DNA of 64,000 nt. Origin: a bacterium (lineage in GTDB: Bacteria > Zhuqueibacterota > Zhuqueibacteria > Residuimicrobiales > Krinioviventaceae). A model generated the notes under the pieces. That model was not told the DNA's origin. It searched no databases and worked only from the letters and a program-made list of their open reading frames with translations. The stretch spans positions 448,001 to 512,000 of the forward strand of contig OY843751.1 of assembly GCA_963693055.1 (NCBI GenBank), given 5' to 3'. Positions within the stretch are counted from its first letter, which is position 1. Every line of letters starts with the position of its first letter. Positions 1-64,000 of the stretch are shown piece after piece. A program made the position numbers and the translations under genes.

Positions 1-1824
1 TCGCTGGATTGTATGTATCATCAGGATGGTATTTATTTGAATAGTACATCGACAGATGTAAATAGTATGCGTAATGGTAGCAGGTGGACTGCTGTTGCAG
101 CAATTAATAATGAAGTTAAATGTTTAGGTGATACTTTAATGCAATTAATACCTCTGGCCACATATCATAATGATAGCCAACCTGACGATCAAGCTGAATT
201 AACATTGTTTGGTGAAACGAATCAGGCATTTAATATTGTAAAAGATATTGATGGTGGTAGTGCAATGATGGGATATTTTAGACACAAGGATACAGGTAAA
301 CATTATGCTATGATAGTTAACAAAAGTTTGACTAGTACTACAACTTTTAATGTTTATTATAATAAAGCCTTACGATATGGAACTAATACGCCAAGAGTAT
401 ATAAAATCAACAAGACTAATCCCGGTAGTTACACTGAAATAAATAGTAATAGTTTTCATTCGGATGGAAATAGATATTATTTCACAATAAGCATTGAAGC
501 TGCAAAAGGTGAATTGTTGAGAATTGAACCTGCTGCAGGTAGTAATAATGTTATTGAATTTATTAATAATATCAATGATATTGAAAATGATGTTAATGTT
601 AGTGTTTCTGATGATAGGTTATATATTGCTCATGATAATGGTGTGTTTTTAAAATATGAAAAAGGAACGGGTGGATATTTTTTCAAGTATTTTGACAATT
701 GGGGTGAAACTAAACCCGTTGTCGATATAGAGCTTGATGAAATAGATTCATCAAATAAGCGAGTATATATCTGTCATGATAATGGAACAACAGGCAATAT
801 GGTGACTATGGATTGGGATTTAAAGGATTGTTTGAATGTTTTTAATGATGGAGGTGCTAACACGCGTGTGACCAGTGTAGCATTTTCGAATTATACATAT
901 ACTGATAATAGCACACCTCCCAGAACAACAGTGCCATCTATATATATTGGACAAAGATCAGCTTCAAGTGGTAATGTAGTGGTGATTAATAGAAGTAGTT
1001 TTTCTTATATTGATACCTGGGCATCGGGTTATAAAGTGAATGATGTTGAGTACCAGGGAAACGGGCATAAAAGTATCGCAATCGCTCATGATGCCGGAAT
1101 AATACGAGTAAGTACTGGTAGTTATTGGTTTGCGTTAGGAGATCCTTCAGCAACAGAGTATTCTACATCAGTACCGGTAAAGGAAATAGAAGCAGATGTT
1201 GATGCAGTTTATGCCGTTTTAAATGATGGCACTTTGGCTATTCGTAGTCCTGGTTTAGGTACTGCAATCTTGACAACATGCTTTAATGAAACTTGTGATA
1301 TCTCTTTGGTTGATGAAACCAGATTTACGATTAGTACTAATTCAAGCTCAGGTAATGCACAATATAAATCATATGATACCAATAATTATAGCACCTATGA
1401 TCAAAACGAGTATGCAAATGCTGTAGCAAGAACCGCTTTGGATACTGGTAATAAATTATATGCTGCGACGACTGAGGCATTATATGTAGAAACAATTAAT
1501 CTAACAAAACCTATCAATGATAATCAATATAATGTTAAGACAGTTTATAGTTTTAAATTAAACGAAAACTATCCCAACCCCTTTAATCCTACGACTAATA
1601 TTGCTTTTGAAATACCGGAAACCGGCAATGTTGAACTAAAAGTCTATAATATACAGGGACGAGAAATTGCTTCCTTAGTAAATGGAGACCTTGAAGCAGG
1701 TGAACATAATGCTATATGGAATGCAACAGATAATTATGGCAAAACGGTTGCTTCCGGTGTATATTTTTACAAGCTGAAATGTAAAGATCATGTTGCAATA
1801 AAAAAAATGGTTCTAGTTAAATAG
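1..1824 (+). CDS. Secreted protein with C-terminal FlgD-like/T9SS-type sorting domain (probably 5'-truncated by the window edge)
   Basis: Frame is open from base 1; C-terminus reads LNENYPNPFNPTTNIAFEIP...SGVYFYKL...KKMVLVK; visibly AT-rich. Confidence 0.8.
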   Translation, partial: SLDCMYHQDGIYLNSTSTDVNSMRNGSRWTAVAAINNEVKCLGDTLMQLIPLATYHNDSQPDDQAELTLFGETNQAFNIVKDIDGGSAMMGYFRHKDTGKHYAMIVNKSLTSTTTFNVYYNKALRYGTNTPRVYKINKTNPGSYTEINSNSFHSDGNRYYFTISIEAAKGELLRIEPAAGSNNVIEFINNINDIENDVNVSVSDDRLYIAHDNGVFLKYEKGTGGYFFKYFDNWGETKPVVDIELDEIDSSNKRVYICHDNGTTGNMVTMDWDLKDCLNVFNDGGANTRVTSVAFSNYTYTDNSTPPRTTVPSIYIGQRSASSGNVVVINRSSFSYIDTWASGYKVNDVEYQGNGHKSIAIAHDAGIIRVSTGSYWFALGDPSATEYSTSVPVKEIEADVDAVYAVLNDGTLAIRSPGLGTAILTTCFNETCDISLVDETRFTISTNSSSGNAQYKSYDTNNYSTYDQNEYANAVARTALDTGNKLYAATTEALYVETINLTKPINDNQYNVKTVYSFKLNENYPNPFNPTTNIAFEIPETGNVELKVYNIQGREIASLVNGDLEAGEHNAIWNATDNYGKTVASGVYFYKLKCKDHVAIKKMVLVK

Positions 1825-1834
1825 GTAAATACAT

Positions 1835-1862
1835 AAAGCCCGGTGATATCACTGGGCTTTTA
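1835..1862 (+). terminator. Intrinsic terminator, likely bidirectional
   Basis: aaagcccggtga-ta-tcactgggctttt between convergent genes. Confidence 0.75.
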
Positions 1863-56701: not shown

Positions 56702-56926
56702 AAGCCCCCACTATTTTTTAATTATCAGGGTTAATTTAGATACACCATAGCATAGGATTTATTTAAAAATATAATCAAAAATATGAGTGATTTAAAGAAC
56801 TTTTCGATATGTAAAGCATTATAACAGTAACACCAAGTTGATTTGTATTGTATTAATTGCTATTTTGAAAGATATATTGTAGTATTTTAGGGATTTTGAT
56901 TGGATAATAAAAAATACTGCAAAATT

Positions 56927-56954
56927 GGGAATAATACCGGATTCCGGTTGTCTA
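56927..56954 (+). promoter_or_regulatory. ECF-sigma-type promoter (putative autoregulatory)
   Basis: GGGAAT-N17-GTCTA; near-copy at 58629. Confidence 0.65.
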
Positions 56955-56972
56955 AATGTTAAAGGGCGAGTT

Positions 56973-57524
56973 ATAGAAAAGACTGACGCACAATTATTGC
57001 GTGAGGCGCGCGAGGAAAGTGGTGATTCTTTTAACGAGCTGGTTAGGAGGTACGAGTCCCGTGTAGCTGCGACCGTAGTGGGAATGTTGGGACGATGCCC
57101 TGAAGCAGATGACGTAGGCCAGGAAACGTTTATCCGGTTCTACAAAGCCATGCATGATTTTCGTGGCGATGCGGAATTGGGAACGTATTTGACACGGATC
57201 GCCATTAATTTGTCATTGAATGAATTGAAAAGGAGAAAACGCCGGTTTCAGGTGTTTCCCAAATCTACAGATTCAGTGCATGACATGACAGATGACAGCA
57301 TAAATCCTGATGCAGGTGACACCAAAACAGTGATCAACAAGGCTTTACAAAAGCTGGAACCGGATTTTAGATCAGTTATTGTACTGCGGCTTGTACAGGG
57401 ATATTCCACAAAAGAGTCAGCAGCAATGCTGAATATTCCCGAGGGAACCGTACTGTCACGGTTGGCCCGTGCGCAATTAAAGTTAAAAAAAATACTCGAA
57501 CCCTTAATGGGAGAGCAAGAATGA
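56973..57524 (+). CDS. ECF sigma-70 factor (start codon uncertain)
   Basis: DAQLL, ADDVGQETF, YLTRIAIN region 2; LNIPEGTVLSRLARA region 4. Confidence 0.9.
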   Translation: MEKTDAQLLREAREESGDSFNELVRRYESRVAATVVGMLGRCPEADDVGQETFIRFYKAMHDFRGDAELGTYLTRIAINLSLNELKRRKRRFQVFPKSTDSVHDMTDDSINPDAGDTKTVINKALQKLEPDFRSVIVLRLVQGYSTKESAAMLNIPEGTVLSRLARAQLKLKKILEPLMGEQE

Positions 57525-57958
57525 AGAAAATGCAGGAACTGTTAATACGATCTTTTGATCAGATCCTGTCAGTGAAGGAACAGCAGGAACTGGACCAGGC
57601 CCTGGAACAGTCAGAAGAGCTTCGCCAGGAAAAAGAACAGCTTGAAAGCATGCGAAATCTTTTATCAGCAGGGGCAGAAGAGTCTTTTCGGCCCATGTTT
57701 GCTGAACGGGTCATGAACCGGATAACAACCAAAAGTGCGCGGCAACCCACCAGTGAAATGGAGTTTTTTGATTCTCTTTTGCATATTTTTCGCAAAGTTG
57801 CCATTGCCGGTGCTATAGCAATTGTGGTGCTTGCTTCGGCTCAGTTGATTGTAAATAATCCATCTACAACAACAACTGCAACGAAGAATGTATCTGAAAT
57901 GTCATTGGATGATGTGCTGGTTTCCGCATTTATTTCCTCAATGGAGGATATACTATGA
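57521..57958 (+). CDS. Putative anti-sigma factor
   Basis: Overlaps the sigma stop codon; helical N-terminus, FAERVM, single TM. Confidence 0.75.
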   Translation: MKKMQELLIRSFDQILSVKEQQELDQALEQSEELRQEKEQLESMRNLLSAGAEESFRPMFAERVMNRITTKSARQPTSEMEFFDSLLHIFRKVAIAGAIAIVVLASAQLIVNNPSTTTTATKNVSEMSLDDVLVSAFISSMEDIL

Positions 57959-58473
57959 CCGTACAGACCAAATCTTCATTAATACTGTTAGTGACACTGC
58001 TTTTGGGGATAATGATTGGCGCCCTGGGAATGAACTTTTATAAAAATCAGAGGATGGTGCAATTCAAAGATTTCAGAGAGCGTGAAATGTTTATGGGACT
58101 GCATGAGCGTATTATTCAGCCCCATTCCGAAGCACAACGCGATTCTATTATGCAGGTGCTGGATAAATATTTACCCCGTTTTAAAGAATTGCATGAAAAA
58201 AATAAAGACGAGATAGCAGTTATTATAGATTCGTTGCAAAATGATCTAAAACCAATTTTATCTGAGGAACAATGGCAGCGATTGATTGAGCGGCGTGAAC
58301 GTATGGACCGTTGGGGCGGTCCGGACAAGTTTGGTCCTCCCCCCGGCGACAGACCTTTTCCCGGTCCACATGAGGGAAAAGACTGGAAAGATCGCAGACC
58401 TCCGGGGCCTAATGATATGCCCCCGCATGGAGGTGATGGCATGCGTCCGCAGCCCCCTCAAGCTCCTCAATAA
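57955..58473 (+). CDS. Membrane-anchored periplasmic accessory protein (Spy/CpxP-like helices, Pro/Gly tail)
   Basis: N-terminal TM, LSEEQW motif, Pro-rich tail; coupled to the anti-sigma gene. Confidence 0.6.
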   Translation: MTVQTKSSLILLVTLLLGIMIGALGMNFYKNQRMVQFKDFREREMFMGLHERIIQPHSEAQRDSIMQVLDKYLPRFKELHEKNKDEIAVIIDSLQNDLKPILSEEQWQRLIERRERMDRWGGPDKFGPPPGDRPFPGPHEGKDWKDRRPPGPNDMPPHGGDGMRPQPPQAPQ

Positions 58474-58714: not shown

Positions 58715-59851
58715 ATGAAGAAAAGAGCTTTTATCAACACGGCGGTTACGATAATATTTTTGTTCGGGCTTTTATTTTTTGGGGAAGAAATTCTATTGGC
58801 TCAACCCGGTAATGGAATGGGGCATCACGATGATAAAGGAATGCACGCATCATTTTTTGAATTGCTCACAAAAGATCAGTTAGCGGAAATACAATCACTT
58901 GTTGAAACCCTGCGAGAAGCGGGCAGTGACCGTGAGGCGGTTCGTAAAGCTGTGGACGCCAAATTGGACGAGTGGGGTGTTGAGCGCCCGGAACCCCCTA
59001 AAGGTGGTGGACATGGTATGCATGGTGGTCCTTTTGCGGATCTGACAGAAGAACAGCGTGCCGAACTGGAGACGCTCGTTAAAACCCTGCGCGAGGCGGG
59101 CAGTGACCGTGAGGTGGTTCGTAAAGCTGTGGACGCCAAGCTGGACGAGTGGGGTATTGAACGCCTGGAACCTCCGGAAGGGGGAAGATATGGCGGTCCC
59201 GGTAAACACGGAATGCCTTTTAAAGATTTGTTGACCGATGAACAGCAAACAGAGCTGGAGACCATGATCAGTAGCATGAGAGATGCCGGCAGTAGTCGTG
59301 ACGAGGTTCACGAGGCAGTAGAGTCTAAACTGGAAGAGTGGGGTATAGAGATCCCTGAGAAACCAGATCAGAACATTCATGAAGCTATGAAGGGCTTGAC
59401 AGCGGATCAACGCAAACAGGTACACGAGCTGGTCAAAGACATGCATGAGCAGGGAGCTGAACGTAAAGTAATTCAGGACGCAGTCAAGAGTATGTTGGAA
59501 TCGTTTGGGATAGAAATGGGTGACAGTTCCGAATCCGGTGATTCGAAAGTCGAAACTCAAAACAATTATGGAAGTACAATCCTGGCTGCAAGCAATTTCC
59601 CCAATCCTTTTAATCCTGAAACCCGGATCAGTTTTGAGCTGGGTAAAGCCGCTAGAGTAAGAGTGTCTGTTTATAATGTTAAAGGCCAGCTGGTAAATAC
59701 CTTGATGGATGAGTATCGTAATGAAGGGACCTGTCAGGTACAATGGAACGGAACGCTGGGAAATGGGGATACCGCGCCTTCGGGTATGTATTTTTTTAAA
59801 ATAAATGCCGATGATGAAACATTAACTGAAAGCATGTTATTAATGAAATAA
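58715..59851 (+). CDS. Secreted protein with four helical repeats and a C-terminal FlgD-like/T9SS-type sorting domain
   Basis: LTxxQxxE...LRxAGxxRE.V..AV..KL.EWG repeats; NFPNPFNPET...SGMYF...MLLMK. Confidence 0.85.
   Translation: MKKRAFINTAVTIIFLFGLLFFGEEILLAQPGNGMGHHDDKGMHASFFELLTKDQLAEIQSLVETLREAGSDREAVRKAVDAKLDEWGVERPEPPKGGGHGMHGGPFADLTEEQRAELETLVKTLREAGSDREVVRKAVDAKLDEWGIERLEPPEGGRYGGPGKHGMPFKDLLTDEQQTELETMISSMRDAGSSRDEVHEAVESKLEEWGIEIPEKPDQNIHEAMKGLTADQRKQVHELVKDMHEQGAERKVIQDAVKSMLESFGIEMGDSSESGDSKVETQNNYGSTILAASNFPNPFNPETRISFELGKAARVRVSVYNVKGQLVNTLMDEYRNEGTCQVQWNGTLGNGDTAPSGMYFFKINADDETLTESMLLMK
58898..59175 (+). repeat. Intragenic direct repeat, 177 bp period
   Basis: aaaccctgcg.ga.gcgggcagtgaccgtgagg.ggttcgtaaagctgtggacgccaa..tggacgagtggggt present twice. 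Confidence 0.85.
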
Positions 59852-59956
59852 GGAAAATTTTCCGGTAGGTTTTGGAAAAAAGGCGGTTATTTCATATAGT
59901 ATTTACTAGAAGTAACCGGAAGTCAAACAAAGATTTTAAAACTTACCGGAGGACAA

Positions 59957-60784
59957 ATGTACAATACTCGTAGTAGTTTGTATGACAGGATATTAGAAAA
60001 AACACCCGAGCAAGTATTCATCAATTCTTTACGAAAAGAATTTGAATTATCACCGGCAGAAAGTAAAGGGATATTGGATTTAGCCAAGCAGTGTTTATTT
60101 GGCGAGGTTCCCCAGACAGTTGGTAAAATAAAATATATCTGCGCATCCACCAAGGCAAAACATGGCAAGCCCCTGGGTGAGCAGGAATTGAAAGAAGTAG
60201 AGTTAACACTGGATGCCGGTGTAGAAGATTTAAATGTATTAAAAGAAAGCGGTCCCAAGGCACTGCGCCAGTTAAAGGTCTTACGATTGACCGAAGAAGC
60301 CTGGGATCAGGAAGGTTCTTTGACACAAGAGGATTTGGCCCGGATCCTCCAGGTTACGAGCCGCACTGTACGCCAGGATATAAAGTCTTTGCAGACTGAT
60401 GGCAACTTTATTCACACGCGCGGAACAGACCATGACATCGGTCGGAGCTTGTCACACAAAAGCCACATTATTGAACTGTATTTGCAGGGAGACACATACG
60501 ATGCAATTATTCGTAAAAGTCGTCATAGCGCGTTTTCAATAAAACGATATGTGTGCAGCTTTGGCAGGCTGTTGTTATTACTGAATCATGGTATGCAGGA
60601 TATCAAAGAGATCAGTCGGTTATTAGGCCAAAGTGAGCGTTTGACCCGTGAGTACCTGGATATTTTTGAGCATCATAAACAGGGTGACAAATGGCCGCCG
60701 ATCTATGTAGAGTTATTGGAGCAATTAAAGGTGTTATACCCCTCGAAAAAAAAACAAACCAAGGAGGGGATCGATGAAGACTAA
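59957..60784 (+). CDS. DUF1670-like protein A1
   Basis: EAWDQEGSLTQEDLARIL HTH; TRG..HDIG..LSHK; RHS..SIKRY. Confidence 0.8.
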   Translation: MYNTRSSLYDRILEKTPEQVFINSLRKEFELSPAESKGILDLAKQCLFGEVPQTVGKIKYICASTKAKHGKPLGEQELKEVELTLDAGVEDLNVLKESGPKALRQLKVLRLTEEAWDQEGSLTQEDLARILQVTSRTVRQDIKSLQTDGNFIHTRGTDHDIGRSLSHKSHIIELYLQGDTYDAIIRKSRHSAFSIKRYVCSFGRLLLLLNHGMQDIKEISRLLGQSERLTREYLDIFEHHKQGDKWPPIYVELLEQLKVLYPSKKKQTKEGIDED

Positions 60785-61589
60785 GCCTTTAAATCGTTAT
60801 GAATCAATAGCTAAGCGTAGCTTTCAAAATGCGATTATTCGATTACTGGAAGAAAATTATAAAATGCTGGGAAGCCACAAAGTCATCCGGATGATTGCGG
60901 AAGATATTGTCGCATTGCAAAATGAATTTTATCCAGAGCTGGAAAAGAAAAGTTTTGGTCAGATTATCTGGCGGACAACCAAAGCGACAAACCGAAAGCC
61001 AAGCTATGGCACAAAAGCGGAAGATTATGAGGTTCAGACAGTTGTGCTACCGTTGGTAACAGATGCGGATATTGACAATCGTATCAAAAGCCATTATTCT
61101 TATCCCCCAAAAGATGGCAGTGCTAATTATGAAAAACAAACAGAACGGGATATTAAAGTAATGGCGCGGTTATGCAAGAGTGCGGCAGAACAGGGCGGCT
61201 GGTTGACAGGTGCAGAACTCAGTGTATTGTTGAATCGCTCATTAAACACTATTGGTCGGTATATGACAATTTATCATGAAACGCATGATGATATATTGCC
61301 GACTAAAGGAATGATGCTGGATCAGGGCAGTAAGCCGACGCATAAAGCCGCAATTATAGATTTGTACGAGCAGGGATATCCCGAACCGGATATCGCCCGG
61401 ATTACAAATCACACAATTGAATCAACGAGTCGGTATTTAAAGAGTTACAAGAACGTAAAATCATTATTGGAAAAAGGTTTTAATTTAATGGAAATGGTAA
61501 GAATAACCGGATTAGGACGGAGTACAATATTACAATACCGTGATCTGGTTTATCATTATCATTCAGATTTAATACAAAAGAAAACTTGA
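60774..61589 (+). CDS. DUF1670-like protein B1
   Basis: SAAEQGGWLT..ELS.LL; PTKG...D.G..PTHK; NHT..S.SRY; RBS aaggagg. Confidence 0.8.
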   Translation: MKTKPLNRYESIAKRSFQNAIIRLLEENYKMLGSHKVIRMIAEDIVALQNEFYPELEKKSFGQIIWRTTKATNRKPSYGTKAEDYEVQTVVLPLVTDADIDNRIKSHYSYPPKDGSANYEKQTERDIKVMARLCKSAAEQGGWLTGAELSVLLNRSLNTIGRYMTIYHETHDDILPTKGMMLDQGSKPTHKAAIIDLYEQGYPEPDIARITNHTIESTSRYLKSYKNVKSLLEKGFNLMEMVRITGLGRSTILQYRDLVYHYHSDLIQKKT

Positions 61590-61620
61590 AAATTTGAAAA
61601 GGAATTAATAGGTTAGGTTG

Positions 61621-61680
61621 TCATTGTTTTTCAGCTAACTCCAGTCGCCCTACGAGCTCCTTTCGTTAGCTGAAAAAATG
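61621..61680. other. Long stem-loop downstream of B1, inside element 1
   Basis: tttttcagctaac...gttagctgaaaaa 13 bp stem enclosing tccagtcgccctacgagctcctttc. Confidence 0.7.
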
Positions 61681-61862
61681 AATAAATGTTCTAATCTTAA
61701 AAACAACCTACCGGAAATATTTCCTAAACGTAAATAGTATCATATGACCAGAGGAGAAAAAGAAATTTATAAAACCCCCTAAAAATACAACGGAGCGTCA
61801 GATCATTAATAAATTTGGTGATCTGTCATTCTGAAAGTAATAAAAGGGAAATATAAAAGCAA

Positions 61863-62687
61863 CTAATTGTTCTTTGAAAGATTCAACTGACTCCTTTGAT
61901 TTTTAATTTTATCAGGCAAAAGATCAACATATTGTTGTATGACACGTTTGGAAAGTCTTGCCAGCTGGCTGATTTGATCAAGGTTTTTAATGTCATGCTT
62001 CCAAAGTAATTCAACACGATGGTAATCTTTGATATACCTGTCAACCGCTTCGTTGCTGTGTTTGGTTTTCAAAGCGATTTCGGGAGTGAGATATCCCTCA
62101 AGATACAGAGTGATAATTTCGCGTTTATGAGTAATAGCGCCGGAAAGATCATGGATGTTGCCACGCGTTGGTAAGAGATGCCCTTCTTTTTGGATTTCAT
62201 TTACATATTTACTGACAACGGCATCACAGACACCGAGTAACATAGCCAGGTCAAGTTGAGTAAGCAGAGCACCTTGATCAAAAGCTTCATCAACCCAACG
62301 TTTGAGGCGTCTTTTCCTTAAAGTTTTGGAATCAAAACCATGCGCGATATGAGAAGTATCCTGATCAGTAATGAAAGAGAGGACAACGGGTTTCATTCGG
62401 GTAGCGGCAATACTTTTTCCGCGTTTGGGGTATTCATCGACAGGAACAGCCATCCAGACGAGTTGCCCATAGTGAATATGGTGCAAGTCATCATCAATAG
62501 AGGAGACAAGGAAATAGTCATCAATGATTTTAAGGATATCATCAATGATGGCATTGGCAGTGATGGCTCCTTTGTCATAGCCATAGCTATTCAAAAAGTT
62601 GTACAGTAGTAACTGCTTGAGATCTTTATCTTTAAGTCGTCTCATTTTTTTGAGTTGAATTTGTTCTTTAGTCAAAGGTTTACTCAT
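61863..62687 (-). CDS. DUF1670-like protein B2
   Basis: EAFDQGALLTQLDLAMLL; PTRG..HD...ITHK; KHS..AVDRY; RBS aggagg. Confidence 0.8.
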   Translation of the reverse strand: MSKPLTKEQIQLKKMRRLKDKDLKQLLLYNFLNSYGYDKGAITANAIIDDILKIIDDYFLVSSIDDDLHHIHYGQLVWMAVPVDEYPKRGKSIAATRMKPVVLSFITDQDTSHIAHGFDSKTLRKRRLKRWVDEAFDQGALLTQLDLAMLLGVCDAVVSKYVNEIQKEGHLLPTRGNIHDLSGAITHKREIITLYLEGYLTPEIALKTKHSNEAVDRYIKDYHRVELLWKHDIKNLDQISQLARLSKRVIQQYVDLLPDKIKNQRSQLNLSKNN

Positions 62688-63519
62688 TTTCTTTGCCTCC
62701 TGATAGATGTTGAGGAATGGATTTTTTTTTCGCGTCGCCACCAGGTTCCGCAGGAGATAACAGATCGTTTAATCGCGTATTGTTTTGTTGAAGATAGGTT
62801 TGGTAGAGTTGGATATACTCGCGCACCAGGCGGTCGGATTTCTTTGCAATGAGTCGAATCTGGTTCGGAGAGAAATTTTCCTTGTATAAAAGGGCGATCT
62901 GCATAAAGTCAGCGAGGTAACGTTTGATGCTGGTTTCAGAATGATTGGTTTTTTGTTCTATTTCTGAAAAGGTATAACCTTTAAGATACAGATCAATAAT
63001 GATGGTTTTATGAGACAGTCCGGGACCCATGTCATGTTTCATACCTCGTGTCATGATAAACATACCGTGATGACGGAGATGATAAATGTCACGTTTAACA
63101 GTGGCCGGACTGGTGGTTAAAAGCATTGCCAGGTCTTCATAGCTGAGTAAAGCACCCTGATCATAGGCTTGTCGAGTCAGACGGGCGATCCGGTGTCGTC
63201 TAAGTCCGGCAAGGCCATAATTAGCCAGGGCTTGCAGATCTGTATTAAAGTCAATTAGTTTGAGACGGACCGTAAGCTTTCGGGTTAATCTGATATGTTT
63301 GCCGGCTGGTTCTTCAGCGGCAACAGCTTCATAAGCGACTTCACCTCCTGATAATGAAATGTTGGAATGTTCCTGAAAGTATTGGTCAAATTGTTGATAG
63401 TAAGCTTCGGCAATAATAGGAGTCAAATTGAAATCCTGAGACAGTTTTTGGACAATAGCGTTTTTAGCTGTCTTGGATTCGAGTCTTTTTAAACCATAAT
63501 TATTTTTAACATCTGCCAT
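62680..63519 (-). CDS. DUF1670-like protein A2
   Basis: QAYDQGALLSYEDLAMLL; TRG..HDMG..LSHK; NHS..SIKRY; RBS aaggag before ATG 63519. Confidence 0.8.
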   Translation of the reverse strand: MADVKNNYGLKRLESKTAKNAIVQKLSQDFNLTPIIAEAYYQQFDQYFQEHSNISLSGGEVAYEAVAAEEPAGKHIRLTRKLTVRLKLIDFNTDLQALANYGLAGLRRHRIARLTRQAYDQGALLSYEDLAMLLTTSPATVKRDIYHLRHHGMFIMTRGMKHDMGPGLSHKTIIIDLYLKGYTFSEIEQKTNHSETSIKRYLADFMQIALLYKENFSPNQIRLIAKKSDRLVREYIQLYQTYLQQNNTRLNDLLSPAEPGGDAKKKSIPQHLSGGKENE

Positions 63520-63594
63520 AAGAATCTCCTTATTTCTGTTTTTATTAAAACAATGATTCCTATGGTCATATGCACTAAACTTTAAATAGTTTAT

Positions 63595-63620
63595 AGAGCA
63601 GAGGTGCAAACCTCTGCTTT
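63595..63620 (+). terminator. Hairpin, probably the displaced terminator of the 58715-59851 gene
   Basis: agagcagaggt-gcaa-acctctgcttt immediately after the last AAATAG core. Confidence 0.65.
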
Positions 63621-63649: not shown

Positions 63650-64000
63650 ATGAAAACAAAATGGATTATGCTCTATACTGTTTTGCTCTTTGTAATGTTT
63701 TTGGGTTGCAAGGCAAAAACGTACGAGTGTTACGAGTTGAACAGCAAAATCACGATTAATGGTAATAACGCTGATTGGGAAAAAATTCCCCAGTTATACG
63801 ATGAAGACAATGAAACCGTATTTGCGTTTGCTAAAAACGATTCATTTGTGTTTGTTATGATCAGCTTTAACAATGAGAGCATGGTCCACAAGTTTACCAT
63901 GGGCGGTGGTGGAATCTGGTGGAGTGCTGATGGGAAAAAGGAAGAAGCGTTTGGGTTGTTCTATCCTCCTGTAACTCCGGTAGCCATGGGAGAACAGGGA
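63650..64000 (+). CDS. Lipoprotein, partial (runs off the window)
   Basis: RBS gagga, ATG 63650, MKTKWIML...FLGC lipobox, ITINGNNADW; frame open to the end. Confidence 0.7.
   Translation, partial: MKTKWIMLYTVLLFVMFLGCKAKTYECYELNSKITINGNNADWEKIPQLYDEDNETVFAFAKNDSFVFVMISFNNESMVHKFTMGGGGIWWSADGKKEEAFGLFYPPVTPVAMGEQG

Follow-up and report, generated by a model that had tools for sequence, protein, structure and literature searches.

How can a mobile element lodge inside the last codon of a protein-coding gene and leave the product of that gene unchanged? The question is posed by a locus at 58,715–63,620 of a 64,000-nucleotide stretch of bacterial DNA (positions 448,001–512,000 of contig OY843751.1; hereafter the window), which is part of a complete 6.5-Mb genome and whose proteins have close homologues labelled candidate division KSB1. 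Here, four genes of the DUF1670 family (PF07900), arranged as two pairs in opposite directions, lie between the stop of a host gene and a hairpin at 63595–63620, and each pair is flanked by its own subterminal inverted repeat. It is nearly certain that the two pairs are mobile elements, A and B, which target the stop codons of genes ending in a particular C-terminal domain (CTD) and rebuild the stop as they enter. We consider them mobile because near-identical copies, seven and six in number, are present in this genome and absent from orthologous sites in a genome of the same genus (G001). Both A and B insert in one orientation, keep a host-derived dinucleotide at the left and regenerate the target. 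As a full explanation we think it probable that each is a site-specific insertion sequence (IS) that enters the last codon of a CTD gene, its DUF1670 pair serving as the recombinase, which would read the DNA and exchange strands at a core of 2 bp.

The host gene (58715–59851, plus strand) encodes 378 amino acids (aa), with helical repeats followed by a C-terminal FlgD_ig/Por_Secre_tail domain similar to type A of the type IX secretion system (T9SS); FlgD_ig (39.7 bits), Por_Secre_tail (31.7) and TIGR04183 (31.5) all score above cut-off in profile scans. We use CTD for such a T9SS/FlgD-type tail as assigned by profile match, its role in secretion being putative. The open reading frame (ORF) ends in MLLMK and a stop, and its last triplet and stop are now finished by element A. 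The preliminary description of this DNA had reasoned that cutting out both elements would restore MLLMK, the stop and the hairpin, and the empty orthologous site in G001 shows exactly that: a Lys codon, TAG, the same hairpin directly 3′ of the stop and the orthologue of the gene at 63650, with the host-gene orthologue 86% identical. The displacement of the terminator, put at 3.7 kb, also holds, since the host's original ATAG now lies 3738 bp downstream at 63586–63589, ahead of the terminator-like hairpin (63595–63620, plus strand; 11-bp stem, GCAA loop, z −4.5), at which a simple terminator scan made no call. Two further occupied loci of this genome are empty in G001 as well, and one empty orthologue ends AAG TAG where the occupied copy reads AAATAR (R, purine). 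The sole other CTD gene end in the window (1819–1860, plus strand) has AAATAG at 1819–1824, a protein end KKMVLVK and then an 11-bp hairpin; it does resemble an unoccupied site, as had been suggested.

Element A (59848–61731, plus strand, 1884 bp) follows a host-derived AA core at 59846–59847, the first two bases of the last Lys codon; a collapsed-repeat contig break falls at 59846. Its tip ATAA (59848–59851) supplies the wobble base and a new TAA stop and is the same in 7/7 full copies, AAG-TAG targets included; six of these copies are near-identical and one is 92% identical. The left subterminal inverted repeat (59851–59871), which contains a 12-bp imperfect palindrome (59852–59863), is 90% complementary to 61705–61725, and the right repeat (61705–61731) consists of a palindrome at 61713–61724 and a 7-nt spacer at 61725–61731. 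A second AA core (61732–61733) joins A to element B (61734–63583, 1850 bp, six near-identical copies), whose genes are on the minus strand and whose tip ATAG (61734–61737) reads on the plus strand. The left repeat of B (61741–61755) is 93% complementary to 63558–63572, and its right repeat (63558–63583) includes the 7-nt spacer 63577–63583. Beyond it, at 63584–63589, come an AA core, the host wobble base and the original TAG, as assigned from the empty orthologue in G001. The cargo of each element is a DUF1670 gene pair and no further gene. A carries A1 (gene-1 type, 275 aa, 59957–60784, PF07900 E 6.6e-47) and A2 (gene-2 type, 271 aa, 60774–61589, E 4.9e-48), both on the plus strand. B carries B2 (gene-2 type, 274 aa, 61863–62687, E 2.1e-62) and B1 (gene-1 type, 279 aa, 62680–63519, E 9.8e-59), both on the minus strand; B1 homologues are mostly 279 aa. 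The two elements are distantly related, with A1 and B1 34% identical.

The choice of target is most clearly seen across the genome. When the window's two tails were used to grow a hidden Markov model (HMM), it detected 254 ORF ends with a CTD, of which 237 are complete. The 13 element copies occupy 12 loci, 11 of which are CTD stops, although CTD ends make up only 149 of the 669 Lys-TAR gene ends (occupancy enrichment P 6e-7) and 151 of the 23,135 AARTAR hexamers; the other 520 Lys-TAR gene ends hold no element copy. The twelfth locus is an intergenic copy of B (genome position 6088448). This flank tabulation, with 40/80 loci elsewhere, upholds the earlier proposal that CTD gene ends are the targets, as opposed to random AT-rich sites. 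Tips of A in a decayed state are present at four more CTD ends, and in one case the right end of A has become joined to a truncated CTD. The idea that the Lys-stop end is a safe harbour stands in part: the harbour is the CTD stop, and elsewhere host ends also read Arg, Gln, Glu and Pro, plus one TGA stop. Likewise the host protein is left intact, the last codon being synonymous and the stop (TAG to TAA) coming from the tip, but one of the 13 copies is intergenic and one relic has removed a CTD end.

That relic (L150, genome positions 333049–333470) is a shortened CTD ORF joined to an A right end, a deletion product that damages the host gene; the joint lies at a short sequence common to Ser-Thr-Gly codons and the element repeat. 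The decayed A tips, 16–45 bp long, follow CTD ends at genome positions 1730449, 3844073, 5684747 and 5975650. Lone B tips are common in KSB1 genomes, and the tip pattern matches in 37/167 genomes. A short hairpin-type repeat also recurs 3′ of several CTD gene ends, at genome positions 5333668, 5600715, 5970693 and 5975653.

The same behaviour is found in relatives. PF07900 matches occur in 33/167 genomes of the phylum, with A-type elements sense and B-type elements antisense after CTD stops. Among 80 loci fetched with a B1-led alignment, which are related and not independent, there are 40 at which the tip of the element makes the stop of a CTD gene, in hosts labelled KSB1, Calditrichota, Ignavibacteria, Bacteroidetes, Marinimicrobia, Cloacimonadota and Eisenbacteria; at most of the remaining loci the flank is too short for the HMM to call. 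No such stop is found at the 17 loci from distant clades (Chloroflexota, Armatimonadia, Methanoperedens and others). Distant clades share the end layout, but their sites are hairpins like repetitive extragenic palindromic (REP) sequences or the ends of other IS. Insertions into REP-like hairpin loops are seen at L007, L010, L050, L044 and L118, and insertions next to other IS ends at L113, L116, L117 and L127. CTD targeting is clade-specific, and insertion orientation is fixed per clade. A quick tree was built from 58 rows, without 15 near-copies. In it, the sense CTD clade and the antisense one each fall on one side of a branch (support 100 and 99), and rows with other targets are placed between the two, though weakly supported (79). 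Two kinds of variant were also noted: internally deleted derivatives of 130–350 bp (L190, L194, L266), resembling miniature inverted-repeat transposable elements, with both ends intact and still at CTD stops; and proteins of 930–950 aa (P0244, P0251, P0254, P0259) in which three stretches match DUF1670 and helix-turn-helix (HTH) is the one further Pfam domain.

Read in the host direction, the layout is gene, NN, ATAR, palindrome and, at the far end, palindrome, 7 nt, MM, N-TAR, where NN and MM are the left and right dinucleotides. The preliminary description had taken AAATA to be the repeated unit, which does not hold: the junction comprises a 2-bp core and an element-borne ATAR. The tip ATAR is constant even at AAG-TAG or AAG-TAA targets, and we assign it to the element because the left junction still reads AAATAR there. 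A 5-bp AAATA target duplication is accordingly rejected on the copies at AAG targets and the AAG TAG empty orthologue. The codons AAA, AGA, CGA and CAA are synonymous with those they replace; the last residue is kept and a stop comes next in 52 of 55 paired junctions. These 55 comprise 47 first-set rows and eight added ones; L091 (aberrant), L092/L094 (tandems) and L037 (distant clade) were dropped.

A shorter duplication, of 1–2 bp, produced by the staggered cut of a new transposase and later blurred by mutation, inter-copy recombination or assembly chimeras, is the next reading to consider. Left NN equals right MM in 48/55 junction pairs, CG, AG and TG among them, and the second base agrees in 53/55, so that a 1-bp duplication would fit that many. 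Furthermore, the insertion at L091 is flanked by a duplication of about 33 bp, with two additional A at its left junction, as if its two ends had been joined independently. However, elements with a right CG have CG at the left seven times, AG three times and AA never, and relics that are separate and single-copy show this AG/CG mismatch again; they are internally deleted and on longer contigs (L190/L200, L266), where collapsed-repeat chimeras are an unlikely cause. Elements also keep to targets that match their own right core: one metagenome element has six different right flanks with CG in all of them, and an element in G147 (right CA) stands at CA, CA and CC ends, while 28 sampled CTD ends there read AA 10, CG 9, CA 5 and AG 2 times. 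All 13 copies in this genome have AA on both sides. The B1 model has only three short strands and hence no RNase H fold of the DDE type, and no transposase family matches in Pfam or NCBIfam. We judge target duplication unlikely. A donor-carried recombination core, matched next to the cut, appears to fit the junctions better, because duplication does not predict that elements keep to core-matching targets. Seven of the 55 pairs do differ, several of them single-copy relics, and donor-to-recipient descent is not traceable from genomes.

What, then, performs the exchange? Neither element encodes a recognisable DNA-cutting enzyme, and an undescribed kind of recombinase is likely for this reason. 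The predicted structure of B1 (pLDDT 88.7), on which the fold comparison rests, the gene-2 protein being a full-length paralogue, is nearly all helical, and its structural matches are winged-helix and small HTH domains (Z up to 6.5). Folded alone, the N-terminal 105 residues rank HU/IHF chains first by two methods, end to end but weakly; B1 residues 13–98 align to HU 1–90 (Z 5.0, root-mean-square deviation 14.2, 80 aligned; Foldseek E 0.08). The HU/IHF fold comprises two helices, a beta-ribbon arm tipped by Pro and a third helix, and forms an obligate dimer. Arg113, His170, His193 and Tyr201 (B1 numbering) are 100% conserved in 31 gene-1 and 30 gene-2 sequences. Natural two-domain proteins, 18 in number and including three fusions of gene 1 with gene 2, retain H170, H193 and Y201 in their C halves, whereas their N halves have mostly lost them. 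The His-to-Tyr spacing recalls tyrosine recombinases, yet homology found no support in hhalign, which gave a probability of at most 0.7% against six host tyrosine recombinases, and the R-K-H-R-H/W-Y catalytic domain (PF00589) neither matches the DUF1670 proteins in Pfam nor is listed in fold searches. The two invariant His are 23 residues apart, which is not HUH, and no HUH family is listed in the fold searches. A Resolvase catalytic domain is missing from the Pfam scan, there is no invariant N-terminal Ser, and the resolvase HTH (HTH_7) matches A2 only. The DEDD RuvC-like domain is absent from the helical B1, and no IS110 match was returned in Pfam/NCBIfam for the four DUF1670 proteins. Searches of PDB sequences, PHROGs and the ESM Atlas (best 0.81) gave HTH-level leads only.

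It is also conceivable that the role of the DUF1670 pair is limited to binding, bending and targeting of DNA and that a host enzyme such as XerC/D, the enzyme used by dif-integrating elements, exchanges the strands. All detected structure is indeed DNA-binding (HTH modules and the weak HU/IHF likeness), and the genome has seven Phage_integrase matches. Against this division of labour stand the invariant His/His/Tyr/Arg, with loss in one half of natural fusions, and an end layout that is the same in Chloroflexota and methanogenic archaea at unrelated targets; the elements carry no other gene. We find reliance on a host enzyme distinctly improbable, and we think it fairly probable that core exchange is performed by the DUF1670 pair itself, as a new recombinase, the chemistry of which we infer.

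Based on these features, we propose that the paired 12-bp palindromes are the binding sites of the DUF1670 proteins, which would bring the two ends together in a circle reading palindrome, 7 nt, core, ATAR, palindrome. Several HTH modules would then read about 20 bp of the CTD end, and the circle would recombine with the target just 3′ of the core, which would leave the host's two bases at the left and the donor's at the right. The base next to the cut would have to match between donor and target. Arg113, His170, His193 and Tyr201 may form a phosphotyrosine-type site. The two proteins could dimerise via the HU/IHF-like N-terminal domain, and they may also be made as one chain by slippage on a run of A. 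Such a run (A9, 60746–60754) precedes the A1 stop within the A2 frame, which is open for 286 codons, and is a candidate slippage site for an A1–A2 fusion; B1 has an A9 run at 62722–62730. More generally, a run of seven or more A is present in 57/77 gene pairs, in 76/77 a run is spanned by an open gene-2 frame, and the purine run precedes the gene-1 stop; gene 2 also has its own start. Fusion of gene 1 and gene 2 by slippage on the run may occur.

How the target is read can be approached with a matrix for which 55 flanks in other genomes served as the training set. It holds no information past the stop, and 17–24 bp upstream are needed before CTD ends dominate the top scores. A short motif was rejected, since with matrices covering 8–14 bp upstream CTD ends reach no more than 23% of the high scorers, against 69–84% with 20–24 bp; having been trained on CTD ends, the matrix shows sufficiency and not what gets read. 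Targeting coupled to translation is disfavoured because one copy is intergenic. Protein read-out of about two DNA turns seems the simplest reading. RNA-guided targeting as in IS110/IS1111, by a non-coding RNA from an element end, has in its favour an end layout (3–4 versus 6–7 nt outside the repeat, a 2-bp core, one orientation, REP targets) close to that reported for IS1111, together with a stable hairpin in the 3′ non-coding end of A (61628–61677, plus strand, z −5.4). That hairpin is likely dispensable, because the A-type element of G013 is without it, and Rfam gives no match. The non-coding ends are as short as 38–73 bp, repeats included, in several CTD-targeting members, and targets vary freely at wobble positions over 20 bp, all of which makes such an RNA guide very unlikely; an RNA that overlaps a coding region is still conceivable. 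That insertion is broad and only harmless gene-end copies survive, as the one intergenic copy among 13 might hint, is hardly credible when equally harmless non-CTD Lys-TAR ends are empty, each clade has its fixed orientation and the same pattern is seen in several phyla.

Several observations weigh against strand exchange by the DUF1670 pair at a matched core. No fold or profile ties a DUF1670 protein to any recombinase; the HU/IHF likeness is weak (E 0.08, Z under 8) and not significant in profile comparison; and the invariant His and Tyr could be DNA-binding residues of an HTH. The gene-1/gene-2 frame offset is +1 in 40 pairs and −1 in 37, and one fixed ribosomal shift therefore cannot explain the run. 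No circle or empty-site joint is found in assembled runs, in which contigs drop rare variants. As to the core, the second base is mismatched at two junctions (L003, L082), which suit neither a duplication nor a donor core well, L192 may be a chimera, a scan for non-A right cores contributed 7/55 rows, and the Fisher P of 1e-11 is overstated because the junction rows are related. Finally, the intergenic copy at 6088448 scores poorly on the target matrix. With these points counted, we still lean, if only slightly, towards an undescribed class of autonomous recombinase that would combine an HU/IHF-like dimerisation arm, HTH modules and a His-His-Tyr site, read a degenerate 20-bp coding motif common to hundreds of genes for secreted proteins and integrate through a donor-carried 2-bp core without a scar in the protein, with target specificity re-set between clades from bacteria to archaea.

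The left junction remains a full target after insertion, and the predicted regeneration of the target and tandem accretion are borne out by stacked elements that recur, beyond this locus, in L008/L023, L092, L094 and L195. In L008 and L195 the distal member is a decayed relic, which fits new copies entering the regenerated site next to the gene. Within the window, the likelier order appears to be B first and A second, because the other six A right ends carry no B. Read-through from the host gene into A would be expected, because the A genes are co-directional with it and the hairpin is displaced. An apparent second tandem at 1346–1350 kb of the genome was rejected; it is actually two insertions, of B and A, in two convergent CTD genes (1346330–1350141), with a shared bidirectional terminator between both right ends. 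At L195 (2030–2070), in a Bacteroidetes-type CTD gene, a collapsed scar of tip, one palindrome, spacer and core lies 3′ of an intact element, as if the two palindromes of an older copy had recombined. Upstream of the host gene, the ORFs at 56925–58473 resemble, on visual inspection, an ECF sigma factor, an anti-sigma-like protein and a periplasmic protein rich in Gly and Pro, and may form a unit for envelope stress.

Mobilisation provides a function for a widespread family of unknown function, which forms 1,230 clusters at 50% identity with hosts among KSB1 relatives, Ignavibacteria, Chloroflexota and methanogens; our search, which left ISfinder and most subscription journals outside, found no paper naming DUF1670/PF07900. 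PMC3711429 names other DUFs, and the main text of PMC13343696 contains no "DUF". The DUF1670 pairs would also point to a strand-exchange enzyme without a recognisable relative. By using last codons common to a gene family of about 240 members and bringing their own stop, these elements appear to have found a cost-free way of living in the host. A compact recombinase that inserts at stop codons, with clade-specific targets, could serve for 3′-end tagging or integration.

Where do these elements stand among known systems? IS1111 elements have subterminal repeats with asymmetric extensions of 7/3 or 6/3 bp and a 2-bp core (PMC11187229, PMC11208160). A, B and their relatives resemble IS1111/IS110 in being compact and inserted in one orientation, with asymmetric extensions (6–7/3–4 here), a 2-bp core and member-specific targets that include REP-like hairpins. 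Unlike IS110/IS1111, they have no DEDD/RuvC domain, two HTH-rich genes in place of one recombinase and no long non-coding end, their core differs between DUF1670 lineages and their target is a degenerate coding motif. SE elements and Tn554 are described as having target bases that stay at the left border (the "fingerprint") and donor-carried bases at the right (the "footprint") (PMC10214605). Site specificity and several cooperating genes are shared, and apparently also the lack of a duplication and this border logic; the footprint, in contrast, is 2 bp here and 6 bp there, the length 1.7–2 kb as opposed to 7–16 kb, and the SE enzymes are RHRY tyrosine recombinases, whereas we find no RHRY motif or profile match. 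Tn7, through TnsD at attTn7, relies on a protein that reads a conserved gene 3′ end and spares the gene, but it employs a DDE transposase, duplicates 5 bp and has a single site in each genome; here, some 240 potential sites are available, insertion is inside the last codon and the element supplies the stop. The IS607 family comprises two-gene IS with a serine recombinase, a 2-bp core and no duplication, but the DUF1670 proteins have no Resolvase-family catalytic domain and the model no matching beta-sheet. Two ORFs that overlap, and a homopolymer run on which a fusion could arise, recall the recoding in IS3, IS1 and IS630 (PMC1088944, PMC6211511), although the two ORFs here are paralogues and neither has the DDE domain. 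By their enzyme, the elements fall outside the IS110, DDE and serine families, with a mixed picture for the tyrosine recombinases; they are IS1111-like in the layout of their ends and SE/Tn554-like in the logic of their borders.

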